Virus record (IMG/VR): IMGVR_UViG_3300021976_000010
Span: 1 to 64,000 of that record
DNA: 64,000 nucleotides
DNA from: a virus
Direction: 5' to 3' (one strand)
Within the stretch, counting starts at the first letter, position 1. The number at the start of each line of letters is the position of its first letter. The notes under the pieces were generated by a model. The model saw only the letters and a program-made list of their open reading frames with translations, searched no databases and was not told the origin of the DNA. Positions 10,441-61,568 of the stretch are shown piece after piece. Both the position numbers and the translations under genes were made by a program.

Positions 10441-10442
10441 AG

Positions 10443-17128: not shown

Positions 17129-17853
17129 AACAGGTAACGCTGGTCTACGCCTTCTACGACAATGAAGAGATGCTTCTCCGTCATCTGGCGGAGTGGCATG
17201 AGTATTCATCGTTTGTGAAGACGCTCATCAAGATCATCATCGTGGATGACGCCAGTCCCAACGTGGTCGCGTCGGAGGTGGTCAACTTCTTTGGCTACAC
17301 GGGCGTCGATATTGCGGTGTATCGCGTGCAGAAGGACATCCCGTGGAATCAGGACGGGGCGCGCAATCTGGCGATGCAGGAGGCGCAGACTGAGTGGGTA
17401 TACATGACCGACATGGACCATCTTGTTCCAAGTGATCAGGTTGGTCGCATGCTGGGCTTCGTCGAGTACTGTGCGGTGACTGGTCACTACTACATGCCGG
17501 ATCAGCGCCTGACCAGCGGCGAGAGTGTGCACAGGCCACACCCGAATTCGTTCTTGATGCGAGTCGATGATTTCTGGGCGATGGGTGGGTATGACGAAGA
17601 CTTCGCAGGCTGGTACGGCTCAGACGGTAACTTCCGCAAGTGTGCGCGTGGCGCTGGCCTTGTCGAGCTGCCCATCGACGCATTCTACACCACGGTCTTC
17701 CGTTCGGAGGACATATTCGACGCGAACACCAAGCTCTCTCGCAAGGAGGGCTCGTTCTACGCGCCGCTGAACCAGAAGCTGAACGCCAAGCGCAAGGGGC
17801 CGCCGTACAAGGCGGTCAATCCTGTTCGCTTCGAATGGAAGAGGGAGCTATGA
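17125..17853 (+). CDS. GT-A glycosyltransferase (GT2/GT7-like)
   Basis: IIVDDAS, GARN, TDMDH (DxD), GGYDEDF.GWYG.D. Confidence 0.85.
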   Translation: MKQVTLVYAFYDNEEMLLRHLAEWHEYSSFVKTLIKIIIVDDASPNVVASEVVNFFGYTGVDIAVYRVQKDIPWNQDGARNLAMQEAQTEWVYMTDMDHLVPSDQVGRMLGFVEYCAVTGHYYMPDQRLTSGESVHRPHPNSFLMRVDDFWAMGGYDEDFAGWYGSDGNFRKCARGAGLVELPIDAFYTTVFRSEDIFDANTKLSRKEGSFYAPLNQKLNAKRKGPPYKAVNPVRFEWKREL

Positions 17854-44038: not shown

Positions 44039-44623
44039 ATGTCTAGAGAATATCTGGGTGACGAGGTGCACATGCTCACCTCGGACATCGCGATACTGCG
44101 CAACGAGAATGAGTTGCTCAAGATGGTCAGTGAGCGCAAAGCGGAGGAGAACCGCATTCTACGCGAAGAGCTCATGAGTCTTCGCGTCGCATATGAGGAG
44201 AGGGTCACCGAAGTCGCAGCGATCCGAACCTGCCTCGAGAGCGTCGGTCTCAATATCACGAGTACGCTCCAGCGGTACATGGAACGTCGCGCACTAAAGA
44301 AAGAGACCTTGGCCACAAACACAGAGCCACCACCCAAGGAGCGAGAGTTCAGGCACCACGCAGCGGTCACGTTCAAGGAACCAGAGCTCACCGCGCCACG
44401 CTCGCGACCGCTGGCGGACGAGGTCACGCGCACCTTACCGCCCGCCGCCCGCGTGCCCGTGGCGCGCACCGATGAACCGGTTCCGCCCGCGCCCGCATTC
44501 CTGCGCGCGGGCGGCATGCGCAACGACATTGTTGACAGTCGGCTGCCGAAAGCCGATATCGTCAGTGACGACGATGAGATGCGCAACATGCACGAGAGTC
44601 TTGATAGCAGGAGGAAGGCATGA
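44039..44623 (+). CDS. hypothetical coiled-coil protein
   Basis: RBS; heptad-rich N-terminus. Confidence 0.65.
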   Translation: MSREYLGDEVHMLTSDIAILRNENELLKMVSERKAEENRILREELMSLRVAYEERVTEVAAIRTCLESVGLNITSTLQRYMERRALKKETLATNTEPPPKEREFRHHAAVTFKEPELTAPRSRPLADEVTRTLPPAARVPVARTDEPVPPAPAFLRAGGMRNDIVDSRLPKADIVSDDDEMRNMHESLDSRRKA

Positions 44624-45069
44624 GCGAGGAGCACCGGAAGTATGTCGCCGGTTTCCTGTTTCTCAGGGGTCGGGTCTTGCTCGTGCGCAAGACTCACCCT
44701 AAGTGGCAGGCCGGTATGATGAACGCCGTCGGCGGTGAGATCGAGGGAATCGAAAGCCCACGCGACGCGATGGTGCGTGAGTTCAATGAGGAGGCGAGGC
44801 TGCTCACCACCGACTGGTTTCAGTTCGCGTCTGAACACGGCCCGGGCTACGAGGTGCACTTCTTCAGACACGCGCTTTCAAACGACTCGTCATACAGGCC
44901 GCCGAGAGAAAATGACAAGGGTGAGGAGCTAGAGTGGTGCGACCCGAACGGTGTCAAGTATCCCGTCATCGGCAATCTGCACTGGCTCCTTCCACTGGCA
45001 GAGGATCCGCGCCCGATCCACTGCATGGTTGAAACAACGGGCGACATAAGGAAACTGGTAACATGGTAA
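44620..45069 (+). CDS. Nudix hydrolase
   Basis: Nudix box GGEIEGIESPRDAMVREFNEEA. Confidence 0.9.
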   Translation: MSEEHRKYVAGFLFLRGRVLLVRKTHPKWQAGMMNAVGGEIEGIESPRDAMVREFNEEARLLTTDWFQFASEHGPGYEVHFFRHALSNDSSYRPPRENDKGEELEWCDPNGVKYPVIGNLHWLLPLAEDPRPIHCMVETTGDIRKLVTW

Positions 45070-47911: not shown

Positions 47912-48093
47912 GGCGCTCACCTGCAGAAGGTGGAATCATGAACGGCGGCCCATTGTCGGGCCGCCGTATGGCGTGGGGCGGGCCTGTCATGCCGATGCAC
48001 GATGATACGGGCCTTGTCATTGGTGCATACTTCTGGATCGAGGATCACTGGGAGTATGAAGCGGAGAGGAGAGGAAATGAACACCAAGAATGA
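47908..48093 (+). CDS. hypothetical protein
   Basis: ATGA coupling; GGPL.G motif. Confidence 0.45.
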   Translation: MRRSPAEGGIMNGGPLSGRRMAWGGPVMPMHDDTGLVIGAYFWIEDHWEYEAERRGNEHQE

Positions 48094-48520
48094 ACAGGAC
48101 GCCTTGCTCAGCCAGTGTCTGGTGGAATTGGGATTTCGGTTGTTCACCGTTCCATCAATGCTTTCTACGGACACGAACATGCAATACTATGTCGTCTATC
48201 CTGCTGTCGAATTTTATATGCACACGAACGGTGATGTATTCGTGTACGACCAGAGTAGACCATGGGATAGTCTAGCCGTGTCTTTCTGGCATAAGACAAC
48301 GACCCGGCATGTTCACAGCGCAGTGCGCACGTGTCGAATGAGCTATCTAGGCTATCTTGATAGAATGCGGCGACGTCGTGCATCTGGGAGCAGTCAGCGT
48401 CGAACGCAGGCGATAGCGTATTACAAGTTGGAACGTGAACTAAGAAGATTCACTGGAGAAAAGGCTATGACAACCGCAGAGCTGCGCAAGTTTGAAAGGG
48501 ATGCAGACGATGCCGCGTAA
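48077..48520 (+). CDS. hypothetical protein
   Basis: GGAGAGG RBS; lower GC. Confidence 0.6.
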   Translation: MNTKNEQDALLSQCLVELGFRLFTVPSMLSTDTNMQYYVVYPAVEFYMHTNGDVFVYDQSRPWDSLAVSFWHKTTTRHVHSAVRTCRMSYLGYLDRMRRRRASGSSQRRTQAIAYYKLERELRRFTGEKAMTTAELRKFERDADDAA

Positions 48521-48671
48521 CTGCTCAAAGTGCGACGCTCTCATGGAGCAGCAAGAGGACGACCCATCAGTCGGTATCACTGGCTGCTGGACATGTACCA
48601 ACTGTGACCACGTCGAGCCTCTCGAGGACGACGATCACTATCTCGACGATTGCTCAAGGGAGGACAGGTGA
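48510..48671 (+). CDS. small zinc-ribbon protein
   Basis: MPRNCSKC...WTCTNC; coupled to the kinase gene via TGATG. Confidence 0.55.
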   Translation: MPRNCSKCDALMEQQEDDPSVGITGCWTCTNCDHVEPLEDDDHYLDDCSREDR

Positions 48672-49663
48672 TGTCTAGACGAGTTACCAAGGCACAGCAG
48701 AAGGGACTCGACGCGTTCTTCGAGTACGCGCGCAAGCGTCATCTGTGCTATATCATGAAGAACGCAGACCCAAGCTGGAAGATCGACGACGATATTCTCA
48801 GTCACTTCAGTTTCTGCAACGTGTTTCGCGAGCTCGACAAGACCACCATCTGGTTTGCCGAGAACGTGCGCAAGCCGCTCGACAAGGAGAAGCACCCGGG
48901 CCTGATACTGGCCACGGTGCTGTTTCGCATGTTCAACCGGATCGAGACCGGCGAGGCCATGTTCTGCGATGATAATCTGCTTGGCGACGCCAGCGCGTTT
49001 CACGAGTTCTACGCGACCGGCAAGACCGCACCGCTGCGCAGGGCCATCATCAACCGGCTCGGCAAGAAGGGACCATATGTCACGGGCTCGTACATCATCG
49101 CAGGCCCGGGCGGCATGTCGAAGCTCGACGGCATGCTAAAGGTGGTCAAGGACTTCCATGACTCGACGGCCGAGTTAGACCTTGTCCAGTCCGACTGGAC
49201 ACTCGCCAACGAACGTATGGAGCTACACAAGTTCTCACTCCAGCAGGCGCATTCGTGGCTTCGTCAGTTCAGCTTCATGGGCACGTTCCACGCATACGAG
49301 ATAGTCACCGATCTGCGGTGGACACACCTGCTTCGCCGCGCCCCCGATATCCATTCGTGGGCGAATCCAGGCCCGGGGTGCAGGCGGGGGTTGAACGTGC
49401 TCATGGGTCGTGATAAGGACGCGCGGGAGTGGACAAACAACGATGAGCTGCTCAACGAGATGAACATAATTCTTGAGGAGTCGACGACGAAACGGCAATG
49501 GCAGGCGTTCGCCGGGCAGATGAATGCCAAGTATCCAAAGCTGAGTACACCATTCTCATGGGAAATGCGTGACGTCGAGCACACGCTATGCGAATTCGAC
49601 AAGTACGAGCGAACGCGGCACGGTGAGGGCAGGCCGCGCGGACGTTATCGGGGACACGAGTAG
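48671..49663 (+). CDS. 5-hydroxymethyluridine DNA kinase (5-HMUDK, aGPT-Pplase1 family)
   Basis: D.IL..F.FCNV.RE.D.TT, LFR.FN..ET, TG.YI, G.F.AYE..TDL, PGPG..RGL, D.EH.LCEFDKY.R...G.GRPR. Confidence 0.88.
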   Translation: MSRRVTKAQQKGLDAFFEYARKRHLCYIMKNADPSWKIDDDILSHFSFCNVFRELDKTTIWFAENVRKPLDKEKHPGLILATVLFRMFNRIETGEAMFCDDNLLGDASAFHEFYATGKTAPLRRAIINRLGKKGPYVTGSYIIAGPGGMSKLDGMLKVVKDFHDSTAELDLVQSDWTLANERMELHKFSLQQAHSWLRQFSFMGTFHAYEIVTDLRWTHLLRRAPDIHSWANPGPGCRRGLNVLMGRDKDAREWTNNDELLNEMNIILEESTTKRQWQAFAGQMNAKYPKLSTPFSWEMRDVEHTLCEFDKYERTRHGEGRPRGRYRGHE

Positions 49664-49744
49664 CACAGGGAGTAGCGTCATGAGTTTCTATGGAGCACTG
49701 TTCATGGGTGTAGTCGTGATACACGTGGCCGCGAGGTACATCGC

Positions 49745-50047
49745 ATGAACGACACGCATGACCCGACGAACGCCACGTTCTACGCGTTCAAGGGCTATAG
49801 CCTCAGCCGCAAATACTACACGCTCGGTCGAGGTCACCTATCGAAGACGGTGTTCGATCCGCGCACGCCTGACAGGCTCGCACAGATACTTCTCGACAAT
49901 GACAATTGCTGGCCCGGTCTGTCTGGTCCGGGTGAGAGTTTCTTTCGCATCGTAATAGGTGACGAGTCTATCGACCATGGGTATCCACTCATGTTCGACC
50001 CTTCACACGGAATGGTGTTTAACACCGAGTCAACCAAGGAGAAGTGA
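49745..50047 (+). CDS. hypothetical protein
   Basis: GAGG RBS; 100 aa. Confidence 0.55.
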   Translation: MNDTHDPTNATFYAFKGYSLSRKYYTLGRGHLSKTVFDPRTPDRLAQILLDNDNCWPGLSGPGESFFRIVIGDESIDHGYPLMFDPSHGMVFNTESTKEK

Positions 50048-50049
50048 CC

Positions 50050-50895
50050 ATGCTGCCCATTTTCATACCGAGCATGGACAGGGCGGGTGCCCTGTTCGGC
50101 AAGATTTCCACGCTCACGCAGATCAAGAAGGTGAAGAATGACGTTCACCTCGTCGTGCCACCGGATCAGGCCACGCGCTACCGCAACGCGCTGTTCAACG
50201 CGGGTCGCGAGGACGTCGTGGTTCTCGAGTGTCCCGAGAAGGGCATCGCCAAGACGCGGCACTGGATCGGCATGCTGTGCAAGAAAAAGAAGTGGGACAA
50301 GTTCGCGATGTTCGACGACGATCTCAACTTCGCGGTGCGCAAGGACACCACTGGCAACGGGCTGCGCATTCAGGAGAACAAGGACGTCGTCGAGATGCTG
50401 GCGTGGATCGACAAGGCGCTCGACAAGTATGCGCATGTCGGCATATCGCCGCGTGATGCGGCCAAGACCGAGAGTGTTCAGACCGGTGACAGGCCGCTCA
50501 TCCTGCTGAACAAGCGCACGCTGCGAACACTGTGCTACCGCACGGATGATTTCCTGTCGGTGAAGCACGGGCGCGTCGACGTCATGGAAGACTTCGACGT
50601 GAATCTGCAACTCATCGAGAAGGGACTGTGGAATGCTCAGACGTACTGGTGGACCAACGACCAGCGCCAGACGGGCAGCCCGGGCGGGTGTGCCAGCTAT
50701 CGCAGTCACGAGGTTCACGAGGCCAGCGCCCGCAAACTGGCCGAGCTGCACGCGCCATTCGTCACGTTGCGCGAGAAGGTCAACAAGGCTCAGGTCGTTA
50801 AGTCCGCAGAGGCATTTCAGAAGCGCACCGAGGTCACCATCTACTGGGAAAAGTGCGCGATGAATGCGGGCTGGAAGAAGGGAGCGGCGAAGTGA
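50050..50895 (+). CDS. GT-A glycosyltransferase of the TET-associated (TAGT/GREB1-like) type
   Basis: IFIPS..R, V..Q...Y, GI..TR.WI, MFDDD, ED....LQL...G, GGC...R. Confidence 0.78.
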   Translation: MLPIFIPSMDRAGALFGKISTLTQIKKVKNDVHLVVPPDQATRYRNALFNAGREDVVVLECPEKGIAKTRHWIGMLCKKKKWDKFAMFDDDLNFAVRKDTTGNGLRIQENKDVVEMLAWIDKALDKYAHVGISPRDAAKTESVQTGDRPLILLNKRTLRTLCYRTDDFLSVKHGRVDVMEDFDVNLQLIEKGLWNAQTYWWTNDQRQTGSPGGCASYRSHEVHEASARKLAELHAPFVTLREKVNKAQVVKSAEAFQKRTEVTIYWEKCAMNAGWKKGAAK

Positions 50896-51911
50896 GCACC
50901 ATCGCACTGTTCTTCTTTCGACCGACGCTAGGCGGCGGCTCGACCACGTTCACGGCACACCTGTACGAAGCGTTGAAGGCGGTTGGCGAAGACCCCATCA
51001 TTCTGCGCGTCGGCAGGACGAGCAGCGGCAAGCGCAAGACGTTCGGCGAATATGCTGGCGTCGAGTACATGAAGGTGGACGTTGCCACGGCAAAGGAGTA
51101 TGTCAAGAGCATGCCCACGCTGATGACAGCGCCTATCGGGGCCAAGGACCTGCCCGAGCCGGATCTCATTCAGCAGCTCATCGCGTTGGGAATGCGGGTG
51201 GTCATCCACGACCCCAACGAGTTTGACATCTTCGACTATCTCGAGGGCGGCAAGTTCAAGTTCAAGAGGCCGCCGTTCTGCATACGACCGACGATGCACC
51301 GCTTCTACCCAGAGGCGGTGTTCATCCATCACCCGTACAAGCCGGTGACTGCTGACATGAGAATCCAGCGCTCGAAGCTGGCCTGCTCAACAGCCCGCAT
51401 CGCGTCGGTGAAGCGGTCGCGAATGCTGCTCGACGCGAACATGGAGGTGCCCAAGGTGCGTCGCATCGAGCTTCGCGGTGCGGAGTACAGGATGTACACC
51501 TACAATCTCATGAAGAAGTATCCACCGGAAATCTTCAAGCAGTCCGGCGGTGAGTTCCAGTTTCCAAAGTCATTCGAGGCACCTGTGCTCGTGGCCGCGG
51601 AATACGAACTCAACTTCGACATGACGCGCTTCCCTGACGACGGCGGCGGAACGCAGTACGCTCAGATGGAGGCGATGAACGCGGGCACCGTCAACGTCAT
51701 GCACGAAGATTGGTGGCGATTCGGCAAGGGCGAGATGGTCCCGGGCAAGCATGTCTTGACGGTCGATGGAATTTCTGCTATCATCGCTCTGCTGAAGAAC
51801 CCACCGTCCAACCATAGGCGCGACGAAATCAACGCCAACTGCGCCACGCTGCTCAAGCGACACGCGCCGAAGCTCATCGGCGGTGCATACCTACAGGAGT
51901 TGAAGCGATGA
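50892..51911 (+). CDS. GT-B-like glycosyltransferase, paralog 1
   Basis: GGG.TT.T.HL, IHDP.E, HPY, STAR...K, DGGGTQY..MEA..AG. Confidence 0.65.
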   Translation: MSTIALFFFRPTLGGGSTTFTAHLYEALKAVGEDPIILRVGRTSSGKRKTFGEYAGVEYMKVDVATAKEYVKSMPTLMTAPIGAKDLPEPDLIQQLIALGMRVVIHDPNEFDIFDYLEGGKFKFKRPPFCIRPTMHRFYPEAVFIHHPYKPVTADMRIQRSKLACSTARIASVKRSRMLLDANMEVPKVRRIELRGAEYRMYTYNLMKKYPPEIFKQSGGEFQFPKSFEAPVLVAAEYELNFDMTRFPDDGGGTQYAQMEAMNAGTVNVMHEDWWRFGKGEMVPGKHVLTVDGISAIIALLKNPPSNHRRDEINANCATLLKRHAPKLIGGAYLQELKR

Positions 51912-52882
51912 AAGAGGTCGCGCTGTTCTCGTGCAATTGGCCGGCTCAGTCAGGGCCTGCCACCTATACCGCCGAGCTGTATCGCGGGCTCAAGCTCGCT
52001 GGGTATACACCCGTCATCTATCGCGTGCGGGATCACGACGAGCAGAAGTTCCGCGCGTATGGTCACTATCGCGACGTCACGTACAAAATTGTGTCCCCCG
52101 CTTCTGCCTTCGGAATTATCAAGCGCATGCCATCGCTTCTCGTGTCGTCTTGCAATCCGAAGGACTTCAACAAGGAGGTTCTGCGCGAGATGCTCAAGCG
52201 GGGGATGCGCGTGGTGATACATGACCCACGCGAGGAGGAGAACTTTGCCTATGGGGTGCCCGAGCGGCCCATCATCATACGACCAGCGGTGAAGAAGCAC
52301 TTCAAGGACGCGGTGTTCATCCCGCACCCGTACACGCCGCGGAACGTGCAGAACGAGGGCAAGCATATCGCCACCTCCACTGCTCGCACCACGTTCATCA
52401 AGCGTACCACGATGATTCTCGAGGCTAATCGCGTTCTCAAGCGCGCGCGGCTTGGCACCGTACAGATCATGGGAGCCGAGAATCGCATGTACGTTCACCA
52501 CGTGCTGCGAGTCAAGTTTCCAGAGTACAAGTCGCCGCCGTTTCAGTGGTTCGACAAGGGAGCCGAGGTCGCCGCGCTAGGTCGCTTCAACGTCGACTTC
52601 ACGGGTGTGAAGGCGGACGGCGGTGGAACGCAGTACACAACGCTTGAGGCCTGGGATGCCGGCTCTATTCCCATCATCCATGAAGACTGGATGCGCTTCA
52701 AGGGCGAAATGGAGCCGGGCAAGAACTGCTATGCCGTGGACGGCGCGAAGGGCTTGGCGGAGTTGCTACAGCACGGCGAAAAGAAGTATAATGCAGCGAT
52801 GGTGAAGCGCGGGCGCGAGGGCCTCACCATTCACGACAGTCGCACCATAGCGCGTAGAACAATGAAAGAGGTCACACGATGA
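51908..52882 (+). CDS. GT-B-like glycosyltransferase, paralog 2
   Basis: Shares GMRVVIHDP, AVFI.HPY.P, STAR, GAE.RMY and DGGGTQY..LEA..AG with the upstream gene. Confidence 0.65.
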   Translation: MKEVALFSCNWPAQSGPATYTAELYRGLKLAGYTPVIYRVRDHDEQKFRAYGHYRDVTYKIVSPASAFGIIKRMPSLLVSSCNPKDFNKEVLREMLKRGMRVVIHDPREEENFAYGVPERPIIIRPAVKKHFKDAVFIPHPYTPRNVQNEGKHIATSTARTTFIKRTTMILEANRVLKRARLGTVQIMGAENRMYVHHVLRVKFPEYKSPPFQWFDKGAEVAALGRFNVDFTGVKADGGGTQYTTLEAWDAGSIPIIHEDWMRFKGEMEPGKNCYAVDGAKGLAELLQHGEKKYNAAMVKRGREGLTIHDSRTIARRTMKEVTR

Positions 52883-53916
52883 AGTATCCAAGGCAAGAGC
52901 CGCCGAACGCGGTGCAGATCGAGCTCGTCGAGGGCTGCAATCTGCGCTGCGCAGTGTGCGGGCTGAACGGCATTCGTGGCAAGGCCAACGACTACAAGGC
53001 CATGGAAACCGCCACGCTCAAGTCCGCTATCGAGCAGATGGTTGCGCTCGACTGGAATCCACGCATCGAGTTTGCCATGCACGGCGAGCCCTCGATGCAC
53101 CCGGATTTCAACGCGATGGTAAGAGTCGCGCGCGAGGTGGGTCCGCGCTTCCAGATCATGATGACATCGAACGGCGGCGGCTTCTTGAGTAAGCCCGGGC
53201 CGCTCGCAAAGGTGAGGGGCTTCTTCGAGGCCGGGGGCAACGTGCTTGCGTTCGACGACTATGAGAACGCCAATCTCGTACCAAAGATTCGCAAGGCACT
53301 GGAGCCCTACACGGAACAGGCGATAGACTCGGCCTGCGCCGCGATACTCTCGTTCAAGGGTGGTCCGGCTGTTGATGTCTACGAATATCCACAGATGAGG
53401 GAGGGTAATCCTCACACGCGCGGCCACGTGAGCGAGAGTAGGCTCGTGTTCATCCAAGACCTGATCACCGCCAGCAAGGGCACACATTCCCACGTGAACA
53501 ATCACGCGGGCGCGGGCGGGCCGCCGAACGAGAAGGGGCAGGGCAAGCGGTGTGCGAAACCGTTCCGAGAGCTGAGCATTCGCTGGGACGGCAACGTCGC
53601 GGTGTGCTGCAACGATTGGCGCGGCATCTACCAGTGCGGCAACGTAGTCAAGGACGGGCTCGACGCGGTGTGGAACGGCAGGGCCATGGGTGCAGCGCGC
53701 GTGAAACTGTATCACCGCGAACGCGACTTCGGCCCGTGCGAGGGCTGCGACGCGCTCAGCACGCGAGTTGGCCTGCTTCCCGACAAGCTGGGGAAAGAGG
53801 AAATGCCGAAGCCTGACGCTGGCGTCAAGCGCGATATCGCGGCGGCCTTGGCCAAGGGGCCGTTCACCAAACCCGTGCTCCGACCGTGGGAGGTGACCAG
53901 TGGTAAATCGAAGTGA
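52879..53916 (+). CDS. radical SAM protein with SPASM/twitch domain
   Basis: CNLRCAVC, GEP..HP, TSNG; C.KPF.E..I.WDG.V..CC.D...GN...W...C..C. Confidence 0.9.
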   Translation: MKYPRQEPPNAVQIELVEGCNLRCAVCGLNGIRGKANDYKAMETATLKSAIEQMVALDWNPRIEFAMHGEPSMHPDFNAMVRVAREVGPRFQIMMTSNGGGFLSKPGPLAKVRGFFEAGGNVLAFDDYENANLVPKIRKALEPYTEQAIDSACAAILSFKGGPAVDVYEYPQMREGNPHTRGHVSESRLVFIQDLITASKGTHSHVNNHAGAGGPPNEKGQGKRCAKPFRELSIRWDGNVAVCCNDWRGIYQCGNVVKDGLDAVWNGRAMGAARVKLYHRERDFGPCEGCDALSTRVGLLPDKLGKEEMPKPDAGVKRDIAAALAKGPFTKPVLRPWEVTSGKSK

Positions 53917-54256
53917 GACCAGCGATACCCGAGTGGTCTACGGGTTCTTCTGCTCGTGGTGGGGCGGCATCGAGGAGATTGGCAGGCACCACACTGCCAA
54001 GGAGGGAGATCCACACCCGCTGCCCGGGTGTCCGCACTGTCGCAACGGATTGTTGCAAGTGGACAGCGCCGAGGTGTGGTGGACCGGCGTCGAGAAGGTG
54101 AACGCTAAAACACCGGGCTACAAGGACTTCATCTCGTGGCTCAAGGGCAAGTGCTACCGCGACGAGGGCGGCGTGTCTGGCTTCAGACGCGCGCTCGCCG
54201 CGTATAACGAGAATGAGGCCAATCGGCCCGGTCGCGTGAAGGTGGTGCTGCCATGA
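53900..54256 (+). CDS. hypothetical Cys-containing protein (start uncertain)
   Basis: C.WW...P.CPHC...L; coupled to the next gene. Confidence 0.6.
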   Translation: MVNRSETSDTRVVYGFFCSWWGGIEEIGRHHTAKEGDPHPLPGCPHCRNGLLQVDSAEVWWTGVEKVNAKTPGYKDFISWLKGKCYRDEGGVSGFRRALAAYNENEANRPGRVKVVLP

Positions 54257-54507
54257 GTATGAGCTTCTACGAGGGCAAGGTCGTCGAGTTCATGTACATC
54301 AACCATCGCGGCGTCGAGGAGATTCGTCGCGTGGTGCCGCGCTACATATTCCACGGGAACTCCAAGTGGCACCCGATGGAGCCGAAGCAGTGGTTTCTCG
54401 TGGCAACCTGCCTCGACCGGCAGGCTGACCGGCACTTCAAGTTCTCGGCCGACAACATGAAGGGCTGGGATATCAGCGAAGATCAGACCCTGCCGTGGAG
54501 GGCGTGA
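54253..54507 (+). CDS. stand-alone WYL-domain protein
   Basis: F.Y.N.RG....R.V.P..I..G...WH....WFL.A.C.DRQA.R.F. Confidence 0.7.
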   Translation: MSMSFYEGKVVEFMYINHRGVEEIRRVVPRYIFHGNSKWHPMEPKQWFLVATCLDRQADRHFKFSADNMKGWDISEDQTLPWRA

Positions 54508-54510
54508 TGA

Positions 54511-54828
54511 ATGGCAAAGAAGGTAGTCGCAAAGAAGAAATCCGCAGTGTCGGCAAAGAAGGCCGCCCCAAAGGCCGCCACATCACGCTCTGGGTCCTCG
54601 ACGACCCAGTCACGACCTACACCACGAGCAGCCGCGTCCTCGCCGGAAAAGATATCTACGAAGAGTTTATCCGCCGAAACAATGAGCACGTGGCACAAGA
54701 GCGTCGCGCGCGCAGCCGGGCAAATCTCCTTGACACTGTCTCGGCGGCGTCGCTCCGCAACATTCGTTGATGATCTGCTGGAGCTGCTCGCTCCAGTAGT
54801 GGAAGAAATGCGCACGTATCAACAATAG
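54511..54828 (+). CDS. basic Lys/Ala/Ser-rich protein
   Basis: MAKKVVAKKKSAVSAKKAAPKAA; an overlapping alternative frame (54495-54770) exists. Confidence 0.5.
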   Translation: MAKKVVAKKKSAVSAKKAAPKAATSRSGSSTTQSRPTPRAAASSPEKISTKSLSAETMSTWHKSVARAAGQISLTLSRRRRSATFVDDLLELLAPVVEEMRTYQQ

Positions 54829-54838
54829 GGAGGCCATC

Positions 54839-55072
54839 ATGGCTGGAAGCTACGGACATGTTACGAACGCTGACGGAACCTATCGCGGAGTTGCTCTGCT
54901 CGAGAACATGGGCGACATGCACGAGGCGGTCGAGGAGATGTGGTTCATGATCCATAACCTCGCTGGCGGCGATCAGACGAAGATCAAGGCAGCGAGCGAC
55001 GCATATTTCATGTGTCTGCGCGGGGAGACGCCTTGGCCGGTAGCCATGTTGGAGACGAAGAGCAATGAGTAA
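54839..55072 (+). CDS. hypothetical protein
   Basis: GGGAGG RBS. Confidence 0.65.
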   Translation: MAGSYGHVTNADGTYRGVALLENMGDMHEAVEEMWFMIHNLAGGDQTKIKAASDAYFMCLRGETPWPVAMLETKSNE

Positions 55073-55325
55073 CATCGGGCTCACCGAGTGGGAAGTCGAA
55101 GAGATACGCAGGGAGGCGGCGGCAAGCGAAATGAACATCATCACGATCTACCTCAAGGGAAACTACGCGCGGCTCGGGCCGCATAGTGGTGCAGACTGGG
55201 ACAGGGGCTATCTCGCCAACGAGACCAACGTCGCTGTCACAATAGCCGACAACGAGTACGGGCTCAATCAACGATGCTACATGCGCAACGACATCGCACG
55301 AATCGAGCACACCGGGCACTGGTGA
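55065..55325 (+). CDS. hypothetical protein
   Basis: Overlapping start; GGAG upstream. Confidence 0.55.
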   Translation: MSNIGLTEWEVEEIRREAAASEMNIITIYLKGNYARLGPHSGADWDRGYLANETNVAVTIADNEYGLNQRCYMRNDIARIEHTGHW

Positions 55326-55338
55326 CGCTCGCAGTCGG

Positions 55339-55401
55339 TTATACAAAGTTATACACAGGCGCGCACCGGGGCTTGTTCTGGTGCGGCCTGTGCGGGAGAA
55401 T
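55339..55401 (+). promoter_or_regulatory. tandem DnaA-box-like sites plus sigma70-like promoter
   Basis: TTATACAAA (55339-55347), TTATACACA (55349-55357), TTGTTC-N17-GAGAAT (55373-55401). Confidence 0.6.
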
Positions 55402-55430
55402 AGGGCTTCACAAGCGAACAGGGTATATCC

Positions 55431-55877
55431 ATGCGTCCAGTATTGATTGGGATGAACAATCCAGTGAGCAGCGAGCCGGAGCACGCGCTGTTCCCGTATC
55501 CAGAGGGCTGCACCGGGCACCGTCTTCTAGCGATGCTTCAATCGCGCGTTCCGAAGGCCACTCGTCGCGAGTATTGCGCGCGGTTCGACCGGCGCAACGT
55601 GGTCAGCGCCAAGGTGTTCGACAGCAAGATGGCGCAGAAAGGAGCGGCAGACCTGTTCAATGAGTTCTTCGGCTCTGGACGCACGGTCGTTCTGCTCGGG
55701 GCTGACACCGTGGCGGCATTCGGCATCCCCCGGCTGCTGATTCACCCGCAGATGATCGGGGGAGCCACGTATCGGCAGATACCACACCCGAGCGGGCGCA
55801 ATCTTTGGTACAACGTTGACGAGAACAAGGTGCTCGTCTCAATGCTCTTGGAGGATCTCTACAATGGCGCAGTCTGA
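55431..55877 (+). CDS. uracil-DNA glycosylase superfamily protein
   Basis: LIG.N.P, G.RL, N, VVLLG...A.AF, PHPSGRN.WYN. Confidence 0.7.
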   Translation: MRPVLIGMNNPVSSEPEHALFPYPEGCTGHRLLAMLQSRVPKATRREYCARFDRRNVVSAKVFDSKMAQKGAADLFNEFFGSGRTVVLLGADTVAAFGIPRLLIHPQMIGGATYRQIPHPSGRNLWYNVDENKVLVSMLLEDLYNGAV

Positions 55878-56196
55878 TGATGAATGTTCGTGCATCGGTG
55901 AACTGGAACAGCTCCATCTTGCTGACCAGTACGCCGAGCAGGTTGCCTGCGAATTCGTAGAGACTTTTGGTGGAGTGTGCCCATCGATGCTGGACTACGT
56001 GACCGAGAGAATCATTGCTCGACTCGTGCACGTGGCCGTCATGAATCGCGACGAGAACCTGATCGTCAGCGAGCGCAAGACGCTCGATGCGACAGCCGAC
56101 TATATCTTCAGGCTCAGCAAGACTGCACCGGCTACCCTGAAGATTATCATGGACGATGCAGCACGAAAAGGAGAACCGGCGAATGCGAGTAATTGA
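55864..56196 (+). CDS. hypothetical protein
   Basis: GGAGG RBS; fills the gap. Confidence 0.55.
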   Translation: MAQSDDECSCIGELEQLHLADQYAEQVACEFVETFGGVCPSMLDYVTERIIARLVHVAVMNRDENLIVSERKTLDATADYIFRLSKTAPATLKIIMDDAARKGEPANASN

Positions 56197-57265
56197 AGTC
56201 GAAGACGTGAACGAGGCGTACTGGCGAGGTATGAACATACTGCGCACGGATGGTATCGACGAGGACAGCCGCAACGGGCCGGTTCGCGTTATGCCTGAGC
56301 CGGTGACCACGGTGTACCGCAAGCCGCGTCAGCGCGTGCTTTTCGACATGAAGCGTGCGGCCAATCCGTTCTTCCACCTGTTCGAGTCGCTGTGGATGCT
56401 GGCCGGTCGTGACGACGTGGGAGCGTTGAACCGCTACATCACCGACTTCGGCACGCGCTTCGCCGAGTCCGACGGCACTGTTCACGGCGCATACGGGCAC
56501 CGCTGGCGCAAGGCGTTCGGCTTCGACCAGCTCGACGCCATCGTCGCGCGGTTGCGCGCCAATCCGCGAGACCGGCAATGTGTTCTGCAGATGTGGGACG
56601 CGCGGATGGAGGACGGTTCTGACGCTGGGACTGACTACTTTGGTGAGAACGATCTGCTCGGCGTCTGGAAGGACAGGCCGTGCAATACGCAGGTCTACTT
56701 CCGCGTTCGCGAGAATGCACCGGAGGAGAAATGGGCGGCGGGCGGCGCAGTGCCAGAGCCAGTACTCGACATGATGGTCACGTGTCGCAGCAACGACATT
56801 GTCTACGGTGCATACGGCGCGAACGCGGTGCACTTCAGTATCCTTCAGGAGTACATGGCAGGTCGCATCGGCGTGCGCGTCGGGAACATGGAACAGGTCT
56901 CGTTCAACTACCATGCCTATCACGACGTTCTCGCGCGCGTGGGGTGCCCCGCGTATCTCGAGACCTACACCGGGCATAAGCTGAAGGCGCTCCCGATCGG
57001 GAACGCCTGGGAAGCGTGGGACGCTGATCTCATGTATTTCATGTCGTGGCACAAGACCATGACCGAGACCGGCGTCACCGAGGCTGGCACATATATCAAC
57101 AAGTGGTTCAAGTTCACAGCTGAGCCGCTGTTCATTGCTCACTACAAGTGGAAGAGCGCCATGCACAAGGAGGCGAAGACAATGGCGCAGCTCATCGAGT
57201 CCGAAGACTGGCGCTTCGCGGCGCTCATGTGGTTCGAGACTCGTACGAATGCGAGGAGCCGATGA
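56183..57265 (+). CDS. thymidylate synthase homolog, probable dUMP hydroxymethylase
   Basis: SRNG, ANPFFH..E..WMLAGR, GAYG.RWR, KD.PCN, RSND..YG..GAN.VHF (Asn indicates dUMP specificity), H.Y. Confidence 0.85.
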   Translation: MRVIEVEDVNEAYWRGMNILRTDGIDEDSRNGPVRVMPEPVTTVYRKPRQRVLFDMKRAANPFFHLFESLWMLAGRDDVGALNRYITDFGTRFAESDGTVHGAYGHRWRKAFGFDQLDAIVARLRANPRDRQCVLQMWDARMEDGSDAGTDYFGENDLLGVWKDRPCNTQVYFRVRENAPEEKWAAGGAVPEPVLDMMVTCRSNDIVYGAYGANAVHFSILQEYMAGRIGVRVGNMEQVSFNYHAYHDVLARVGCPAYLETYTGHKLKALPIGNAWEAWDADLMYFMSWHKTMTETGVTEAGTYINKWFKFTAEPLFIAHYKWKSAMHKEAKTMAQLIESEDWRFAALMWFETRTNARSR

Positions 57266-57834
57266 ATCTCGCGGAAGACCCACGCGCGGCGGGCGAGATC
57301 CGTCGCTATCACACATGGGCCGTGCACTCCGACCAGACTGTCGGGCTGCACACGTGGCAGATACTGCGCATTCTGCTGACGGTGTGGCCGAACTGCCCTC
57401 GCAACGTGATAGTGTACGGCATCATTCACGACGCCGGTGAGATGAGTGGTGACATTCAGTATCCATTCAAGATCCTGTTTCCTGAACTGCGAGCCGGCGC
57501 CGACAAGGCCGAGAATCACGTCCGCGACATGCAGAGAAAGGGCATCGGCGCACCACCAGAACCACACCCGCTGTCAGTCTTCGAGAAAGCGGTGTTCAAG
57601 TGCTGTGATAACCTCGACATGTGGGAATATGGCCTGCGCGAAATGAACATGGGCAACCTGTACGCCGGTATCATCGTCGAGCGAATGGCGGCGGCGGTTG
57701 CCGAGAACGTGTCGTCGATCAGCGGCATGTTCAACTCTAACAATCGTCAGGCCCTCCAGAATCCTGACGTCAACGCGAACATCCACAAGTACATGCAAAC
57801 CCGTTTGAAAATGGAGACTATCGATGGCAAGTGA
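57262..57834 (+). CDS. HD-domain 5'-deoxynucleotidase (YfbR-like)
   Basis: RYHT...Q.V..H, HD..E..GD...P.K, K..D.L. Confidence 0.85.
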   Translation: MNLAEDPRAAGEIRRYHTWAVHSDQTVGLHTWQILRILLTVWPNCPRNVIVYGIIHDAGEMSGDIQYPFKILFPELRAGADKAENHVRDMQRKGIGAPPEPHPLSVFEKAVFKCCDNLDMWEYGLREMNMGNLYAGIIVERMAAAVAENVSSISGMFNSNNRQALQNPDVNANIHKYMQTRLKMETIDGK

Positions 57835-59257
57835 CGACATGAACCACATGGAACATCTCGAGAGCGTGGCGCTCTCAGACTGTGCAGTGCTGCAATCGAA
57901 GGAGGCGACCTATCAAGGGTCGTGGAAGCGAGCGGGTGGCGTCAGCGCGTGGTTCATGGCACGGCGCAATCTCGATCGGTTGATAACGATGATGGCGCCG
58001 AAACAGTTTCCGGATCATATCACGACGCAGCAGAACGTCATGGATACGCTGAGTGCCGTGGACAACATCGTTCACTACGCTGGTAACGTGCGCGGCCTGC
58101 CCGGTAGCATCGAGGCCACGCGTCAGATCCTCGCGATGCTCGGTGATCGCTTCACTGCCAATGACATCTTCGCCAAGATCAGAGCGAACCCGGGCGGCGA
58201 AGATGGCACCGTGCTCGCCATTGTCCGAGACGCGCGGCGCTACTTCATGCTCGTCGAGGCTGAGATGATCGCCGAGGGCGTCGTAGAGCCCGAGTCCAAG
58301 ACGTACGAGCAAGAGGCCAATGTCTACGTCACACCGGAGACGGACATCTACCAACTCATCGCGGACGAGAAGAGCATACCGCGCGAGGAGGTCAAGCGAC
58401 TCATCCACGAGCTGTTCTACAATACACCGCCGGCTCCCCCGCCTCCTCTTACCACTCCAATCGACGTCACAATTTGCGTTGCGGTGGGTAATGACGGTGA
58501 GCCTGCTCACGAGTACGTGTTTCAGAAATGTACGAGTGTGAGTCTGGACAGTGAACCGGGCAAGCTTCGTGTCTCGATCACACCGCAGCGATCGTTAGGC
58601 GGGGGATACGCAGTGGAACAGGCCGCGCGTCACAAGGAGGGACCGCCGTGGCTCGATAAGATTGGCGGACGGCTACAAATTGGTGACTTGTGCACGTGGA
58701 TGCGGCCTGAGGATGGTGCCACGTTCGTCGTCGAGCTTCACGCTGTGGAAGGGGGCCTGCCCGTGGTGAAGGGTGAGCCAGCGGTGCCAGCAGAGGGGCG
58801 CAGGCTGTCGAGCTGGTCGCAGCTACGCTATGCGGTAGAGAACAAGCGTCGAAGGTTCTTCGCTGACGGTGGTAGTCAGCACTCGTCGATGATACCGTGG
58901 GAGATCCCGGGGTCTTATCACGAGACGATCAAGGCTCGCATCGGCGACGAGATCGATCTGTGGTGGAGGCAGATGACACCCGGCATGTGGCGTCTGTATC
59001 CAGTTGTTCTGACGCGAAGCATACCGCGGGAACTACGGGACATCTTCGAACTTGCGCCTGGAATCAGCAGCACTTGGGTTCTACGTCTCAGCCTTCTACC
59101 GCCCGGCTTGCGTGATGAGTTCCCACGCATACAGGTCGAGATGAATGACAAGGAGTATGATCTGTCGCCATCCGATTTCAAGTTCATGTATCGGCGCGTC
59201 GGTGACAAGTGGGTCGTACGCGACGAGTACCGCGAAGAATGGGGTGTCGAGGCGTGA
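57824..59257 (+). CDS. nucleotide-modification-associated domain 1 (Nmad1, MazG-like) protein with a long C-terminal extension
   Basis: K...Y..SWK..GG..A.....R..DRL...D.RRY..LVEAE in the first ~150 aa. Confidence 0.65.
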   Translation: MASDDMNHMEHLESVALSDCAVLQSKEATYQGSWKRAGGVSAWFMARRNLDRLITMMAPKQFPDHITTQQNVMDTLSAVDNIVHYAGNVRGLPGSIEATRQILAMLGDRFTANDIFAKIRANPGGEDGTVLAIVRDARRYFMLVEAEMIAEGVVEPESKTYEQEANVYVTPETDIYQLIADEKSIPREEVKRLIHELFYNTPPAPPPPLTTPIDVTICVAVGNDGEPAHEYVFQKCTSVSLDSEPGKLRVSITPQRSLGGGYAVEQAARHKEGPPWLDKIGGRLQIGDLCTWMRPEDGATFVVELHAVEGGLPVVKGEPAVPAEGRRLSSWSQLRYAVENKRRRFFADGGSQHSSMIPWEIPGSYHETIKARIGDEIDLWWRQMTPGMWRLYPVVLTRSIPRELRDIFELAPGISSTWVLRLSLLPPGLRDEFPRIQVEMNDKEYDLSPSDFKFMYRRVGDKWVVRDEYREEWGVEA

Positions 59258-59439
59258 CACAGGTCATATTCGCATGGCTCTACTACGGCACGGCGGTCTT
59301 TTTCCTGCTCGTCGTGCCGTACTTCGTCTATGAAAAGAACGGGAGCCAGACAGCGGCCTTGCTCTCGTTCTTTGTTGTTCTTCTGATATCGCTGCAATAC
59401 TATCAAGCACTGAGAAAGTTGATATGGTCAAGTCTGTAA
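59254..59439 (+). CDS. small two-TM protein
   Basis: GTGA coupling; hydrophobic. Confidence 0.55.
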   Translation: MTQVIFAWLYYGTAVFFLLVVPYFVYEKNGSQTAALLSFFVVLLISLQYYQALRKLIWSSL

Positions 59440-61568
59440 AACCGCGGCGACAGGTGATGAACCCGGATCAGATACCACTCATCACACCAGACAGCGCGTG
59501 GACGGTGCCGACGGAGCTCCCGGATCTCAGTCGCATCGACGCCATCGCCATTGACACTGAGGACTACGATCAAGGGCTGCTCGATGGGCGCGGCCCGGGC
59601 TGGGCATTCAAGTCCAAGTCTTCCGGGGGCTACTTGGCAGGCGTGAGCGCGGCGTGGTGGCAGGATGGCGAGGTGCGCAGCATCTATGTTCCCATCAACC
59701 ACCCTGATACCAACTGCATCGATCTATCACGGGCGAAGAAGTGGGTCGCGCATCTACTGAACCGCAAGAAGGGACAGCGAGCTATCTTCTGCAATGCCGA
59801 CTTTGATCTTGGCTGGATCGAGAATTCAATCAGCGGCCTTGGCATCGCACTTCCCGACGGCGAATTCATCGACGATGTCGGTGCGCAGGCCATGCTCATC
59901 GACGAGAATCGCAGGGCCAAGAAGGGGCAGACATCGGCCTATTCCCTCGACGCGATCGCTGAATGGTGCGGCGTCGAGATGAAGGACGAAGTGGCGCTTC
60001 GCGAGGCCGCCGCCGCGTATGGATACAAGGGAAAGGATGTCAAGAGGTTCATCGCGAAGCTGCCCGCGCGCTACGTTGGTCCATACGCGGAACAGGACGC
60101 CCGCTCCACGCTGCTCGCGCACGAAGTAATGGTGCCAATCATCGATGAACAGGAACTCAACGACGCATACGACCTCGAGATGGGGCTCGTGCCAGTAGTA
60201 CACGCCATGCGGAAGCGTGGCATACGTGTCAACGAAGACCGGCTCTGGCAGCTTCACGATAACCTCATGGATCAGCACCAGAAAGCGTGCGACAAGATAT
60301 ACGACATCACGAAGATGCGTGTATCCATTGATGAAATCAGGCAGAAAGACTGGCTCATCAGGGTCTGTGATATGCACGGCATCACCGAGTATATCACTGG
60401 AGAAAACGCGCTCGGTGAGAACGAGACCGAGTTCACCAAGAACTGGATGCGCGCGTCGCAGCATCCGCTGCCCCGGGCAATCGCAGAGGCAAAGCAGTGT
60501 CACGAGGCCGCCACGAAGTTCGTGAAGACCTACCTCATCGACTCTATCGTGGACGGGCGCATCCACGCGAACATCAACCAGTTCAAGACGGAAGACGGCG
60601 GCACCAAGACGCACCGTTTCTCCTATTCCGATCCACCATTGCAGCAGATGCCGAGCCGGCCAGACCCTGTCGAGGGCTGGTTCATCACTGAATTCATCGC
60701 GGCGGCAATCCGCACCGCATTCGAGCCCGAGCCGGGGGAGCTATGGTTCGCCCCCGATTATTCGCAGCAGGAATACAGGCTCATCGTTCACTACGCATAT
60801 CTCATGGAATGTGCCAAGGCCGACGACGCCGTGCGAATGTATCTCGAGGACCCGAACACCGACTTCCACAATCTGGTGGTCGCTCTCACTGGCCTAACGC
60901 GGCGCAGGGCAAAGGACGTGAACTTCGCCAAGGCGTATGGAGCCGGCATTAAGAAGTTTGCGTTGATGACAGGAATGTCACTAGAAGAAGCCGAGAAGGT
61001 GATGGGGCAGTACGATAGGGAAATGCCGTTCGTCAAGGAGCTCAACGATATTTGCGATCGCAGCGCGGCCGAGCGTGGTTACATACGCATGATCGACAAG
61101 GCGCGTTCGCACTTCGACGAATGGGAGCCGCGTTGGTTGGACCGCTCCGAGCGTCAGCGTGGGTACGCCGAGTACTTCGCGATGAACCCGTGTCGCCACG
61201 AAGAAGCGCTCGAACGCTGCGAAACGAAGAATCACCCGTGGTTCAAGAAGGCACTGCGCCGCGCAGATACACGCAAGGCGATGAATCGTCTCATTCAGGG
61301 CAGTGCAGCGAGACAGACGAAGCGCGCGATGCTGTCGTGTTGGCGCGCGGGATATCTCGCGATGCTGCAAATGCACGATGAACTCGCATTCTCTCTGATG
61401 AAAGAGAAAGACGGAAAGATCATCGGTGAAATAATGCGCAACGCTATCAAGATCAGTGTGCCGATGCGCGTCGACGAAGAATATGGCGAGACTTGGGGAA
61501 CGGCAAAATACGCGTTCGCAGACGCGCGCAGGGCGGGCAAGGGTGCCGCGCCCGCGCTGGCGGCCTAG
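59424..61568 (+). CDS. polA: family A DNA polymerase with 3'-5' exonuclease domain
   Basis: IDTE, N..FD, YA..DA; T.RFS...P.LQQ.P, DYSQQE.R, R..AK..NF...YG, IQGSAA..K, HDE. Confidence 0.95.
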   Translation: MVKSVKPRRQVMNPDQIPLITPDSAWTVPTELPDLSRIDAIAIDTEDYDQGLLDGRGPGWAFKSKSSGGYLAGVSAAWWQDGEVRSIYVPINHPDTNCIDLSRAKKWVAHLLNRKKGQRAIFCNADFDLGWIENSISGLGIALPDGEFIDDVGAQAMLIDENRRAKKGQTSAYSLDAIAEWCGVEMKDEVALREAAAAYGYKGKDVKRFIAKLPARYVGPYAEQDARSTLLAHEVMVPIIDEQELNDAYDLEMGLVPVVHAMRKRGIRVNEDRLWQLHDNLMDQHQKACDKIYDITKMRVSIDEIRQKDWLIRVCDMHGITEYITGENALGENETEFTKNWMRASQHPLPRAIAEAKQCHEAATKFVKTYLIDSIVDGRIHANINQFKTEDGGTKTHRFSYSDPPLQQMPSRPDPVEGWFITEFIAAAIRTAFEPEPGELWFAPDYSQQEYRLIVHYAYLMECAKADDAVRMYLEDPNTDFHNLVVALTGLTRRRAKDVNFAKAYGAGIKKFALMTGMSLEEAEKVMGQYDREMPFVKELNDICDRSAAERGYIRMIDKARSHFDEWEPRWLDRSERQRGYAEYFAMNPCRHEEALERCETKNHPWFKKALRRADTRKAMNRLIQGSAARQTKRAMLSCWRAGYLAMLQMHDELAFSLMKEKDGKIIGEIMRNAIKISVPMRVDEEYGETWGTAKYAFADARRAGKGAAPALAA

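Follow-up and report, generated by a model that had tools for sequence, protein, structure and literature searches.

To our knowledge, all thymidine hypermodifications solved so far (those of phages M6, ViI, PhiW-14, PaMx11 and SH-Ab 15599) start with the phosphorylation of 5-hydroxymethyldeoxyuridine (5hmdU) by the kinase 5-HMUDK, followed by the transfer of an amine or amino acid by an amino-acid:DNA transferase (AADT). Base J (beta-D-glucosyl-hydroxymethyluracil, a kinetoplastid base) and the glucosyl-hydroxymethylcytosine (glucosyl-hmC) of T-even phages are made by direct sugar transfer. Here we describe a gene cluster in a 64,000-nucleotide stretch of DNA from an uncultured phage (hereafter the window), which comprises the first 64 kb of the 76,974-bp IMG/VR virus record IMGVR_UViG_3300021976_000010, rated 100% complete by CheckV. 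The cluster probably encodes a thymidine hypermodification pathway that is independent of a kinase: 5hmdU in DNA would be glycosylated directly, the glycan would be extended and a sugar hydroxyl would be oxidised. We put the probability of this reading at roughly 60%.

Comparison with described systems

The clusters of M6/YuA and PaMx11 (PMC5889632, PMC8989533) share with the window phage a backbone of genes and their order, namely HMUDK_hel (gp55/gp50), a thymidylate synthase (TS) homolog (gp58/gp51), an HD-domain protein and the family A DNA polymerase PolA, at 28–40% identity. However, the P-loop 5-HMUDK, the AADT, the pyridoxal phosphate (PLP)-dependent decarboxylase and the flavin adenine dinucleotide (FAD) lyase or acetyltransferase of M6/PaMx11 are absent in the window phage, and in place of this catalytic core it carries one GT-A and two GT-B glycosyltransferases and a BtrN-like radical S-adenosylmethionine (SAM) enzyme. 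As the metavirome survey of Lee et al. used the kinase as bait, clusters without a kinase lay outside it. The main genes of the window cluster are listed here.

48671–49663, + strand: HMUDK_hel / aGPT-Pplase clade-1 protein (PF18723, E 6e-41), homolog of M6 gp55 and PaMx11 gp50
50044–50895, + strand: TAGT-type GT-A glycosyltransferase with the DxD motif FDDDL (PF20691, E 3e-18; phrog_842, 2e-35)
50892–51911, + strand: GT-B (GT4-like) paralog 1, 339 aa (AF2 model and Foldseek)
51908–52882, + strand: GT-B paralog 2, 324 aa (37% identity to paralog 1, E 1e-60)
52879–53916, + strand: BtrN-like radical SAM and SPASM protein (PF04055 and PF13186)
56183–57265, + strand: TS homolog of the dUMP hydroxymethylase type (phrog_5131, 9e-89)
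57262–57834, + strand: HD-domain phosphohydrolase, M6 gp59-like (phrog_6047, 1.6e-21; phrog_7076, 'dATP triphosphohydrolase')
59424–61568, + strand: family A DNA polymerase PolA, M6/PaMx11-like (PF00476, 2.6e-41)

With base J and T-even glucosyl-hmC, the predicted pathway shares the direct transfer of a sugar from a nucleoside diphosphate (NDP)-sugar to the hydroxymethyl oxygen in DNA. It would differ from base J formation in that its 5-hydroxymethyluracil (5hmU) is made before replication by the TS homolog and not by a JBP dioxygenase, and from the T-even pathway in that its base derives from uracil instead of cytosine. To both, the window adds three glycosyltransferases, a radical SAM enzyme and the HMUDK_hel protein. 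The GT-B model resembles T4 alpha-glucosyltransferase (AGT; TMq 0.70), although the sequence identity is just ~12%, and the window TAGT matches the PHROG of the second-sugar transferase of T6. Metavirome pathways with GT-B enzymes, often located near ThyS homologs and sugar-activating genes, appear in the passages of Pyle et al. (bioRxiv 10.1101/2023.12.21.572611) considered here. The glycans characterised in that work are on cytosine (5-hydroxymethylcytosine, 5hmC), in clusters with methyltransferase/TET genes, whereas the window product is predicted to be thymine-derived; an HMUDK_hel partner, a BtrN-like enzyme and a thymine-derived product are all absent from the passages considered.

Proposed pathway

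In the pathway proposed here, the TS homolog would convert dUMP into 5-hydroxymethyl-dUMP, as suggested by homology, the HD hydrolase and perhaps a NUDIX protein (44620–45069) would tune the nucleotide pool, and PolA would incorporate 5hmdU into DNA. A GT-B enzyme, a structural analogue of T4 AGT, would then use a host NDP-sugar as donor and glycosylate 5hmdU directly at its 5-hydroxymethyl oxygen. The second GT-B and the TAGT GT-A would extend or diversify the glycan to up to three sugars, and the BtrN-like radical SAM enzyme would turn one secondary hydroxyl of the attached sugar into a ketone. No phosphorylation step appears to be encoded.

Search for a kinase, an AADT and a PLP enzyme

An original prediction, made from the letters of the window alone, had named the 48671 gene a 5-HMUDK and had its product phosphorylate 5hmdU as the first step. 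The proven kinases are M6 gp54 and PaMx11 gp49 (PMC8989533), which are ~190-aa P-loop proteins neighbouring gp55 and gp50. In Pfam, M6 gp54 belongs to PF18748, a profile that PaMx11 gp49 matches weakly and under the cut-off, and M6 gp55 itself belongs to PF18723. The 48671 protein is a homolog of gp55/gp50 and not of the kinases: it matches PF18723 with 141 bits against a cut-off of 25 over profile positions 4–278 of 281, and tblastn finds PaMx11 gp50 at 3e-60 and M6 gp55 at 8e-36. As PF18723 is its only family match and no Walker A motif ([AG]x4GK[ST]) is present in 48650–49663, its identity as 5-HMUDK was rejected.

A kinase was not recognised elsewhere in the genome either. Searched against the complete genome, the PF18748 profile matched nothing at E<=10, and tblastn with M6 gp54 and PaMx11 gp49 gave nothing better than E 0.3. 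In a genome-wide scan for Walker A motifs, the terminase and the UvrD helicase gave the only convincing hits; of the two other pattern matches, one falls in a short out-of-frame open reading frame (ORF) and one close to the C-terminal end of a 153-aa ORF. The ORF at 48002–48520, which occupies the position of the kinase in M6/PaMx11, was rejected as a candidate since it shows no similarity to the kinases and no P-loop. With the 48671 product a helical paralog and no P-loop kinase in the genome, a phospho-linked sugar is without basis in the gene content.

The amino-acid route is missing to the same extent. The AADT (aGPT-Pplase2) profile PF18724 is likewise unmatched across the genome at E<=10, and none of the M6/PaMx11 kinase, AADT, PLP, FAD and acetyltransferase proteins found a BLAST match in it. 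In the remaining 13 kb of the record, Pfam searches of the ten longest + strand ORFs gave no match of relevance, and four relatives rated 100% complete match neither PF18748 nor PF18724. Thus, the observation that the window holds no aGPT-Pplase2 or PLP enzyme extends to the whole genome, and an aGPT-Pplase2/PLP pair outside the window, which the original prediction had named as a finding that would speak against it, was looked for in the complete genome and not found. With no AADT and no M6-like PLP enzyme, its view of a thymidine hypermodification cluster without the amino-acid route is supported.

Glycosyltransferases

The TAGT protein matches PF20691 with 66.9 bits against a cut-off of 27.5 over profile positions 2–205 of 205, and phrog_842 is annotated as 'beta-glucosyl-HMC-alpha-glucosyltransferase'. 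It is 35% identical to gp22 of phage PhiJL001 and probably adds a second sugar.

The two proteins encoded next to it had no match in Pfam, PHROG, NCBIfam or PDB sequence searches, and only structure prediction resolved their fold. The AF2 model, built from a 46-sequence alignment, has a pLDDT of 95.4 and a pTM of 0.93. Foldseek found 444 PDB matches to it at E<=0.001, and every match among those listed is a GT-B enzyme, the highest TMq being 0.70. The top matches are HepE (5e-11), DNA-bound T4 AGT (the TMq 0.70 match), BshA, PimA and MshA. Hence, the 50892–52882 paralogs have the predicted GT-B fold, the lack of which had been named as another finding that would speak against the original prediction. 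The invariant residues of the family (R132, K174, D243, G251–G253, Q255, Y256 and E260) resemble, by eye, the GT4 C-terminal motif.

Conservation between the two paralogs is best in the C-terminal part (residues 241–300, 51%), which contains the invariant DGGGTQY..EA. Paralog 2 falls in a separate subclade together with P0077/P0079, apart from paralog 1. The duplication that gave rise to the two copies is therefore not recent, and each probably has its own acceptor or donor. All 84 homolog clusters of this GT-B family are metagenomic; tblastn found no match in 50,697 phage records, so that no cultured phage among them carries the family. Distant relatives, 22–31% identical, were found in ~45 contigs of Nitrososphaerales/Thermoproteota metagenome-assembled genomes (MAGs; L057–L107), with no HMUDK_hel or TS homolog nearby. 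These represent either a cellular or an archaeal-virus branch with another role.

Radical SAM enzyme

The 52879–53916 protein carries the radical SAM motif CX3CX2C at C20/C24/C27 and the conserved cysteines C225, C243/C244, C287 and C290, as expected for a single auxiliary 4Fe-4S cluster with four cysteines. A profile of 12 phage homologs, when compared with the PDB, matched BtrN at E 1e-23, and the next match was at 1e-6. Two aligned segments make up the BtrN match; they cover the AdoMet radical core as well as the auxiliary-cluster domain at the C-terminus, whose cysteines fall in register. In butirosin biosynthesis, BtrN (PDB 4m7t) is the 2-deoxy-scyllo-inosamine dehydrogenase, and the group that it oxidises is a secondary alcohol on an aminocyclitol. 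The two enzymes correspond in core, auxiliary domain and cysteine register. However, the phage enzyme is ~75 residues longer, belongs to a phage-specific family (its nearest Atlas clusters are 97–100% viral) and is found in a DNA-modification context. Whereas the substrate of BtrN is a free aminocyclitol, the phage enzyme presumably acts on a DNA-linked sugar or on the hydroxymethyl group. By analogy with BtrN, we expect it to oxidise a sugar hydroxyl, the 5-hydroxymethyl group being the less probable target.

Nucleotide pool and replication genes

The TS homolog is 39% identical to both PaMx11 gp51 and M6 gp58 (E about 1e-70). The catalytic cysteine of its PCN motif and the asparagine of RSND..GAN are common to M6 gp58, PaMx11 gp51 and all 34 homologs from the related loci described below, and this asparagine aligns to an aspartate of the CMP hydroxymethylase MilA. 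As the specificity residue is the uracil-type asparagine of M6/PaMx11, a cytosine-based pathway is unlikely. The assignment as a dUMP-type TS homolog, made in the original prediction, agrees with these residues, and the protein would be the source of 5hmdUMP; that it hydroxymethylates rather than methylates is suggested by its likeness to the M6 and PaMx11 proteins, which we take for the dUMP hydroxymethylases of the two phages. The HD protein (2e-7 to M6 gp59 by tblastn) probably shapes the nucleotide pool. PolA is 28–30% identical to the polymerases PaMx11 gp55 and M6 gp62. One more protein is encoded in this part of the cluster.

57824–59257, + strand: 477-aa protein with no Pfam, PHROG, NCBIfam or PDB match

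Neither the whole protein nor its residues 1–170 matched Pfam at E<=1. It had been called Nmad1, an identity that we could not confirm: the only sign of it is a weak Atlas score of 0.78, and PF07659 (DUF1599, which in Atlas clusters bears the name 'nucleotide modification associated domain') has no match in the genome at E<=10. Only the N-terminal ~160 aa are conserved, being homologous to ORFs of 104–148 aa that precede PolA in relatives. The position of these small ORFs, between the TS homolog and PolA, is the same throughout (L012, L016, L017, L019–L021 and L023; 57824–58333 in the window), and they form a conserved small partner.

Related loci and cultured phages

Synteny was analysed in 46 IMG/VR viral loci that encode the GT-B family. 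HMUDK_hel is present in 36 of them, usually immediately adjacent to the GT-B gene; the TS homolog is found in 34, the HD protein in 29, PolA in 24, this radical SAM family in 20 and TAGT in 14. None of the 46 has a kinase or AADT of the M6/PaMx11 type by BLAST. About 10 loci lack both HMUDK_hel and TS. The minimal recurrent module consists of HMUDK_hel, GT-B, TS, the small ORF, PolA and HD, and the window module, with three glycosyltransferases and a radical SAM enzyme, is an elaborated version of it. Several of the GT-B islands carry accessory genes.

L019 and L035: FkbM-type methyltransferases
L013 and L014: MobA-like NTP transferases
L030: cytidylyltransferase/PMI-cupin protein
L013: APH-like protein
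L014: weak sulfotransferase match

All of these genes fit a sugar product. With genes for NDP-sugar synthesis and FkbM methyltransferases in related islands, the sugar decoration put forward in the original prediction is the best reading of the cluster. One locus is built differently: in L010 (8933–16839), the genes after HMUDK_hel and GT-B encode a radical SAM protein that is like M6 gp53 but has a ~400-aa insertion (possibly an intein), an M6 gp52-like PLP enzyme, TS and HD. Neither a kinase nor an AADT was found in this 45-kb record, which is only 48% complete.

Three cultured phages encode HMUDK_hel next to glycosyltransferases of the TAGT type and a TS homolog, and none of the three has a PF18748 kinase.

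PhiJL001: gp19 (HMUDK_hel), gp22 (TAGT) and gp24
Brevibacterium phage LuckyBarnes: gp38, gp39/40 and gp41
Ralstonia phage RSL1 (L053, RSL1 162908–177237): ORF231 (HMUDK_hel) to ORF237

Unlike the window phage, these three have no GT-B family, and tblastn with the window radical SAM enzyme finds nothing in them. The best cultured-phage match of the 48671 protein is PhiJL001 gp19 (41%). The RSL1 cluster contains three TAGT-type glycosyltransferases, a galactose-3-O-sulfotransferase, an APS kinase, two nucleotidyltransferases (NDP-sugar pyrophosphorylase) and the TS homolog, which suggests that RSL1 makes a sulfated glycan on a pyrimidine. We found no report on the DNA composition of PhiJL001, LuckyBarnes or RSL1 in the literature. 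The statement that no characterised base is made by this set of genes agrees with the literature searched, but the gene combination itself recurs widely, cultured phages included.

HMUDK_hel protein

A motif LCExDKYxR is conserved in HMUDK_hel, C307, E308, K311 and R314 being invariant across 24 homologs, and a glutamate is located four residues before the cysteine (E303-x3-C307). This pair aligns with E243-x3-C247 of the AADT PaMx11 gp46, which constitutes a motif in common but not family membership. In the AADTs M6 gp51 and ViI gp247, the cysteine and a nearby glutamate are essential, and an attack on C6 with an exocyclic methylene intermediate was proposed (Lee et al. 2021, PMC8989533). The AF2 model of HMUDK_hel is all-helical (pLDDT 84). 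Its best match in VIA-align is PaMx11 gp46 (Z 10.4, 225 aligned, rmsd 4.4), followed by DUF2419 and then by the helix-hairpin-helix DNA glycosylases Mag1, NTHL1, MUTYH, EndoIII and AlkA at Z 8–9.5, but a VIA-align Z below 13 is not by itself decisive for a helical protein. Foldseek gave no match for the model at E<=0.001. The Pfam ADDT profile matches PhiJL001 gp19 weakly (E 7.8e-4). Taken together, these individually weak signs from sequence and model are consistent with HMUDK_hel being a distant homolog of AADTs.

No function was found for the HMUDK_hel family in the literature. M6 gp55 is dispensable for the formation of N-alpha-GlyT in lysate reactions (PMC8989533). HMUDK_hel had no match in 14 control cellular genomes, and a search for longer proteins in which it is fused to another domain found none, which is weak evidence. 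The predicted complex of HMUDK_hel with GT-B paralog 1 scored 0.00 in both runs, a result that counts neither way on binding. HMUDK_hel accompanies the enzyme taken to act first on 5hmdU, be it a kinase, as in M6 and PaMx11, or a glycosyltransferase, as in the window phage. For this reason, and as the AADT-type cysteine and glutamate are kept, we suspect that it performs C6-thiol chemistry on 5hmdU or a derivative. A candidate reaction is the conversion of unmodified 5hmdU into thymine. Such an activity exists in SP10, PhiW-14, M6 and ViI, and we found no enzyme assigned to it in the literature.

A bolder and rather doubtful extension of this suspicion is that HMUDK_hel acts as a Cys-C6 enzyme together with the glycosyltransferases on unphosphorylated 5hmdU, either forming thymine or linking base and glycan via the exocyclic methylene, after which the BtrN-like enzyme would make a keto-sugar on DNA. 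Were this true, the resulting thymines with their oligosaccharides would form a new class, and 5hmdU would be activated in a new way that needs no phosphate.

Alternative explanations

Several points weigh against direct glycosylation followed by oxidation. The chemistry is known for no member of this class of clusters, and the identity, linkage and number of the sugars, read from sequence, would be guesses. The likeness to BtrN shows the class of the enzyme and not its substrate, so that the 5-hydroxymethyl group could be the target. A kinase may be provided by the host or may be present among the ORFs of unassigned role. The phage has a second glycosyltransferase/methyltransferase cassette in its head module, and not every glycosyltransferase of the phage need act on DNA. 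Furthermore, direct O-glycosylation leaves a cysteine-bearing HMUDK_hel beside the glycosyltransferase unexplained, and L010 hints that HMUDK_hel and a glycosyltransferase might stand in for the kinase and the AADT, which is the main hint for a substitution reaction. In such a reaction, a glycosyltransferase (or acid catalysis) would make the 5-hydroxymethyl oxygen a leaving group, the HMUDK_hel cysteine would attack C6 to give the exocyclic methylene, and another nucleophile, such as the hydroxyl of a sugar, an amine or a hydride, would be installed, so that the base might end up as something other than a simple O-glycoside. This is in line with the invariant E-x3-C aligned to the catalytic Glu/Cys of AADTs, with PaMx11 gp46 as the nearest fold, with the weak ADDT match of PhiJL001 gp19, with the company of HMUDK_hel and GT-B in 36 of 46 loci, mostly as neighbours, and with the joining of the two to M6-type gp53/gp52 in L010, where kinase and AADT are not in view. 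However, kinship with AADTs is weak by sequence, as hhalign of HMUDK_hel against gp46/gp51 covers 20 columns with a probability of 1.5%, and the Z of 10.4 to gp46 lies within the chance range for helical proteins. A glycoside is a poor leaving group next to phosphate, the sugar transferred by GT4-like enzymes normally stays attached to the acceptor, the sugar-tailoring genes of related islands suggest that the sugar is kept, M6 gp55 can be dispensed with in lysates (PMC8989533), and L010 is known from less than half of its genome. We consider the substitution unlikely.

The remaining alternatives appear improbable. The glycosyltransferases could act on a protein, a lipid or a small molecule, leaving only 5hmdU or T in the phage DNA. 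The distant GT-B relatives in the ~45 Nitrososphaerales/Thermoproteota contigs, the ~10 viral loci without both partners and the GT2/methyltransferase cassette among the head genes would agree with this. However, in most loci the genes of the phage GT-B clade have HMUDK_hel on one side and the TS homolog on the other, within the replication module, DNA-bound T4 AGT is among the best structural matches of the GT-B, the name of the TAGT family reflects a link with the DNA-base-modifying TET/JBP enzymes, and HMUDK_hel itself is unmatched in the control cellular genomes. More improbable still is the phosphorylation of 5hmdU by the 48671 product or another kinase, with sugars placed on or through the phosphate to give a phospho-linked glycan of the SP-15 type, as originally envisaged. 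The Pfam name of PF18723 does mention a 5-hmdU DNA kinase, SP10 gp186 is a kinase domain fused to an aG/PT-PPlase domain (Lee et al. 2018, PMC5889632), and several ORFs of the cluster are still unassigned; but the 48671 protein belongs only to a helical family without a P-loop, the proven kinase being M6 gp54 (PF18748), the genome-wide PF18748 and Walker A searches gave nothing convincing beyond the motifs of the terminase and the helicase, and the kinase is also missing from the four complete relatives and the three cultured phages of the same layout. Least probable of all, in our view, is a modification of cytosine (to 5hmC or 5-hydroxycytosine, then glycosylated) like that of T-even phages, RB69 and DLP3. 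TS homologs can indeed be dCMP hydroxymethylases or 5-hydroxy-dCMP synthases (PMC13326640), and the best PDB sequence match of the window TS homolog is a CMP hydroxymethylase, albeit a weak one (E 5e-8). Nevertheless, its specificity position is the asparagine of dUMP enzymes opposite the aspartate of MilA, all 34 TS homologs of the related loci have RSND..GAN like the enzymes of the 5hmdU phages M6 (gp58) and PaMx11 (gp51), and proteins of the aG/PT-PPlase type are tied to thymidine-hypermodifying phages in the literature considered here (PMC5889632).

If 5hmdU is indeed glycosylated directly, phage DNA with base-J-like or oligosaccharide-bearing thymines is to be expected from this cluster and its many relatives, as are a new family of DNA-acting GT-B enzymes and a radical SAM dehydrogenase for a DNA-linked sugar. 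Such bases would bear on the evasion of restriction and CRISPR, on the sequencing of environmental phages and on enzymatic tools for 5hmU labelling. The kinase-free setting also offers a clean place to learn the role of HMUDK_hel, a question left by the dispensability of M6 gp55 in vitro, and the simpler versions of the cluster in the cultured phages PhiJL001, LuckyBarnes and RSL1 make the prediction testable now.

Genome setting and other features

The GC content is ~60% all along the window. A + strand module of replication and nucleotide metabolism genes extends from 42 to 62 kb. It begins with an AEP primase-like gene, the NUDIX gene mentioned above, a UvrD helicase and an Rv2179c-like exonuclease, after which HMUDK_hel is followed by a 100-aa ORF, TAGT, GT-B paralogs 1 and 2, the radical SAM/SPASM gene and small ORFs (one of them WYL), and it closes with the TS homolog, the HD protein, the 477-aa protein and PolA. 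Start and stop of neighbouring genes overlap all the way from TAGT to the 53900 ORF, and a Shine-Dalgarno-like run is located just 5' of several likely starts. Scans of the cluster for promoters and terminators gave background levels only, so that the single operon assumed in the original prediction is not demonstrated; its inventory and positions of the genes, all on the + strand, are essentially right, apart from the names 5-HMUDK and Nmad1. Megablast of the cluster against the 50,697 phage records gave no match. Two small ORFs of the cluster have no assigned family.

49745–50047, + strand: 100-aa ORF between HMUDK_hel and TAGT, without Pfam, PHROG or NCBIfam match
53900–54256, + strand: 118-aa ORF overlapping the stop of the radical SAM gene, without family match

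Neither is conserved in the relatives: tblastn with the 49745–50047 ORF found no match in the 46 related loci, and the 53900–54256 ORF had none there either. An 84-aa WYL-domain protein (54253–54507; PF13280, 1.4e-5) is encoded within the run of modification and replication genes.

The cassette of sugar type among the head genes (15666–17853) comprises a Methyltransf_24 protein (15666–16433, 8e-18) and a GT2 glycosyltransferase (17125–17853, 1e-10); three neighbouring ORFs have no Pfam match. It probably serves the glycosylation of the virion. Also of note is an Acb1 anti-CBASS domain (PF23474, E 5.9e-37) found at residues 565–709, in the C-terminal part of the portal protein (10389–12680; PF06381, 2.5e-96).

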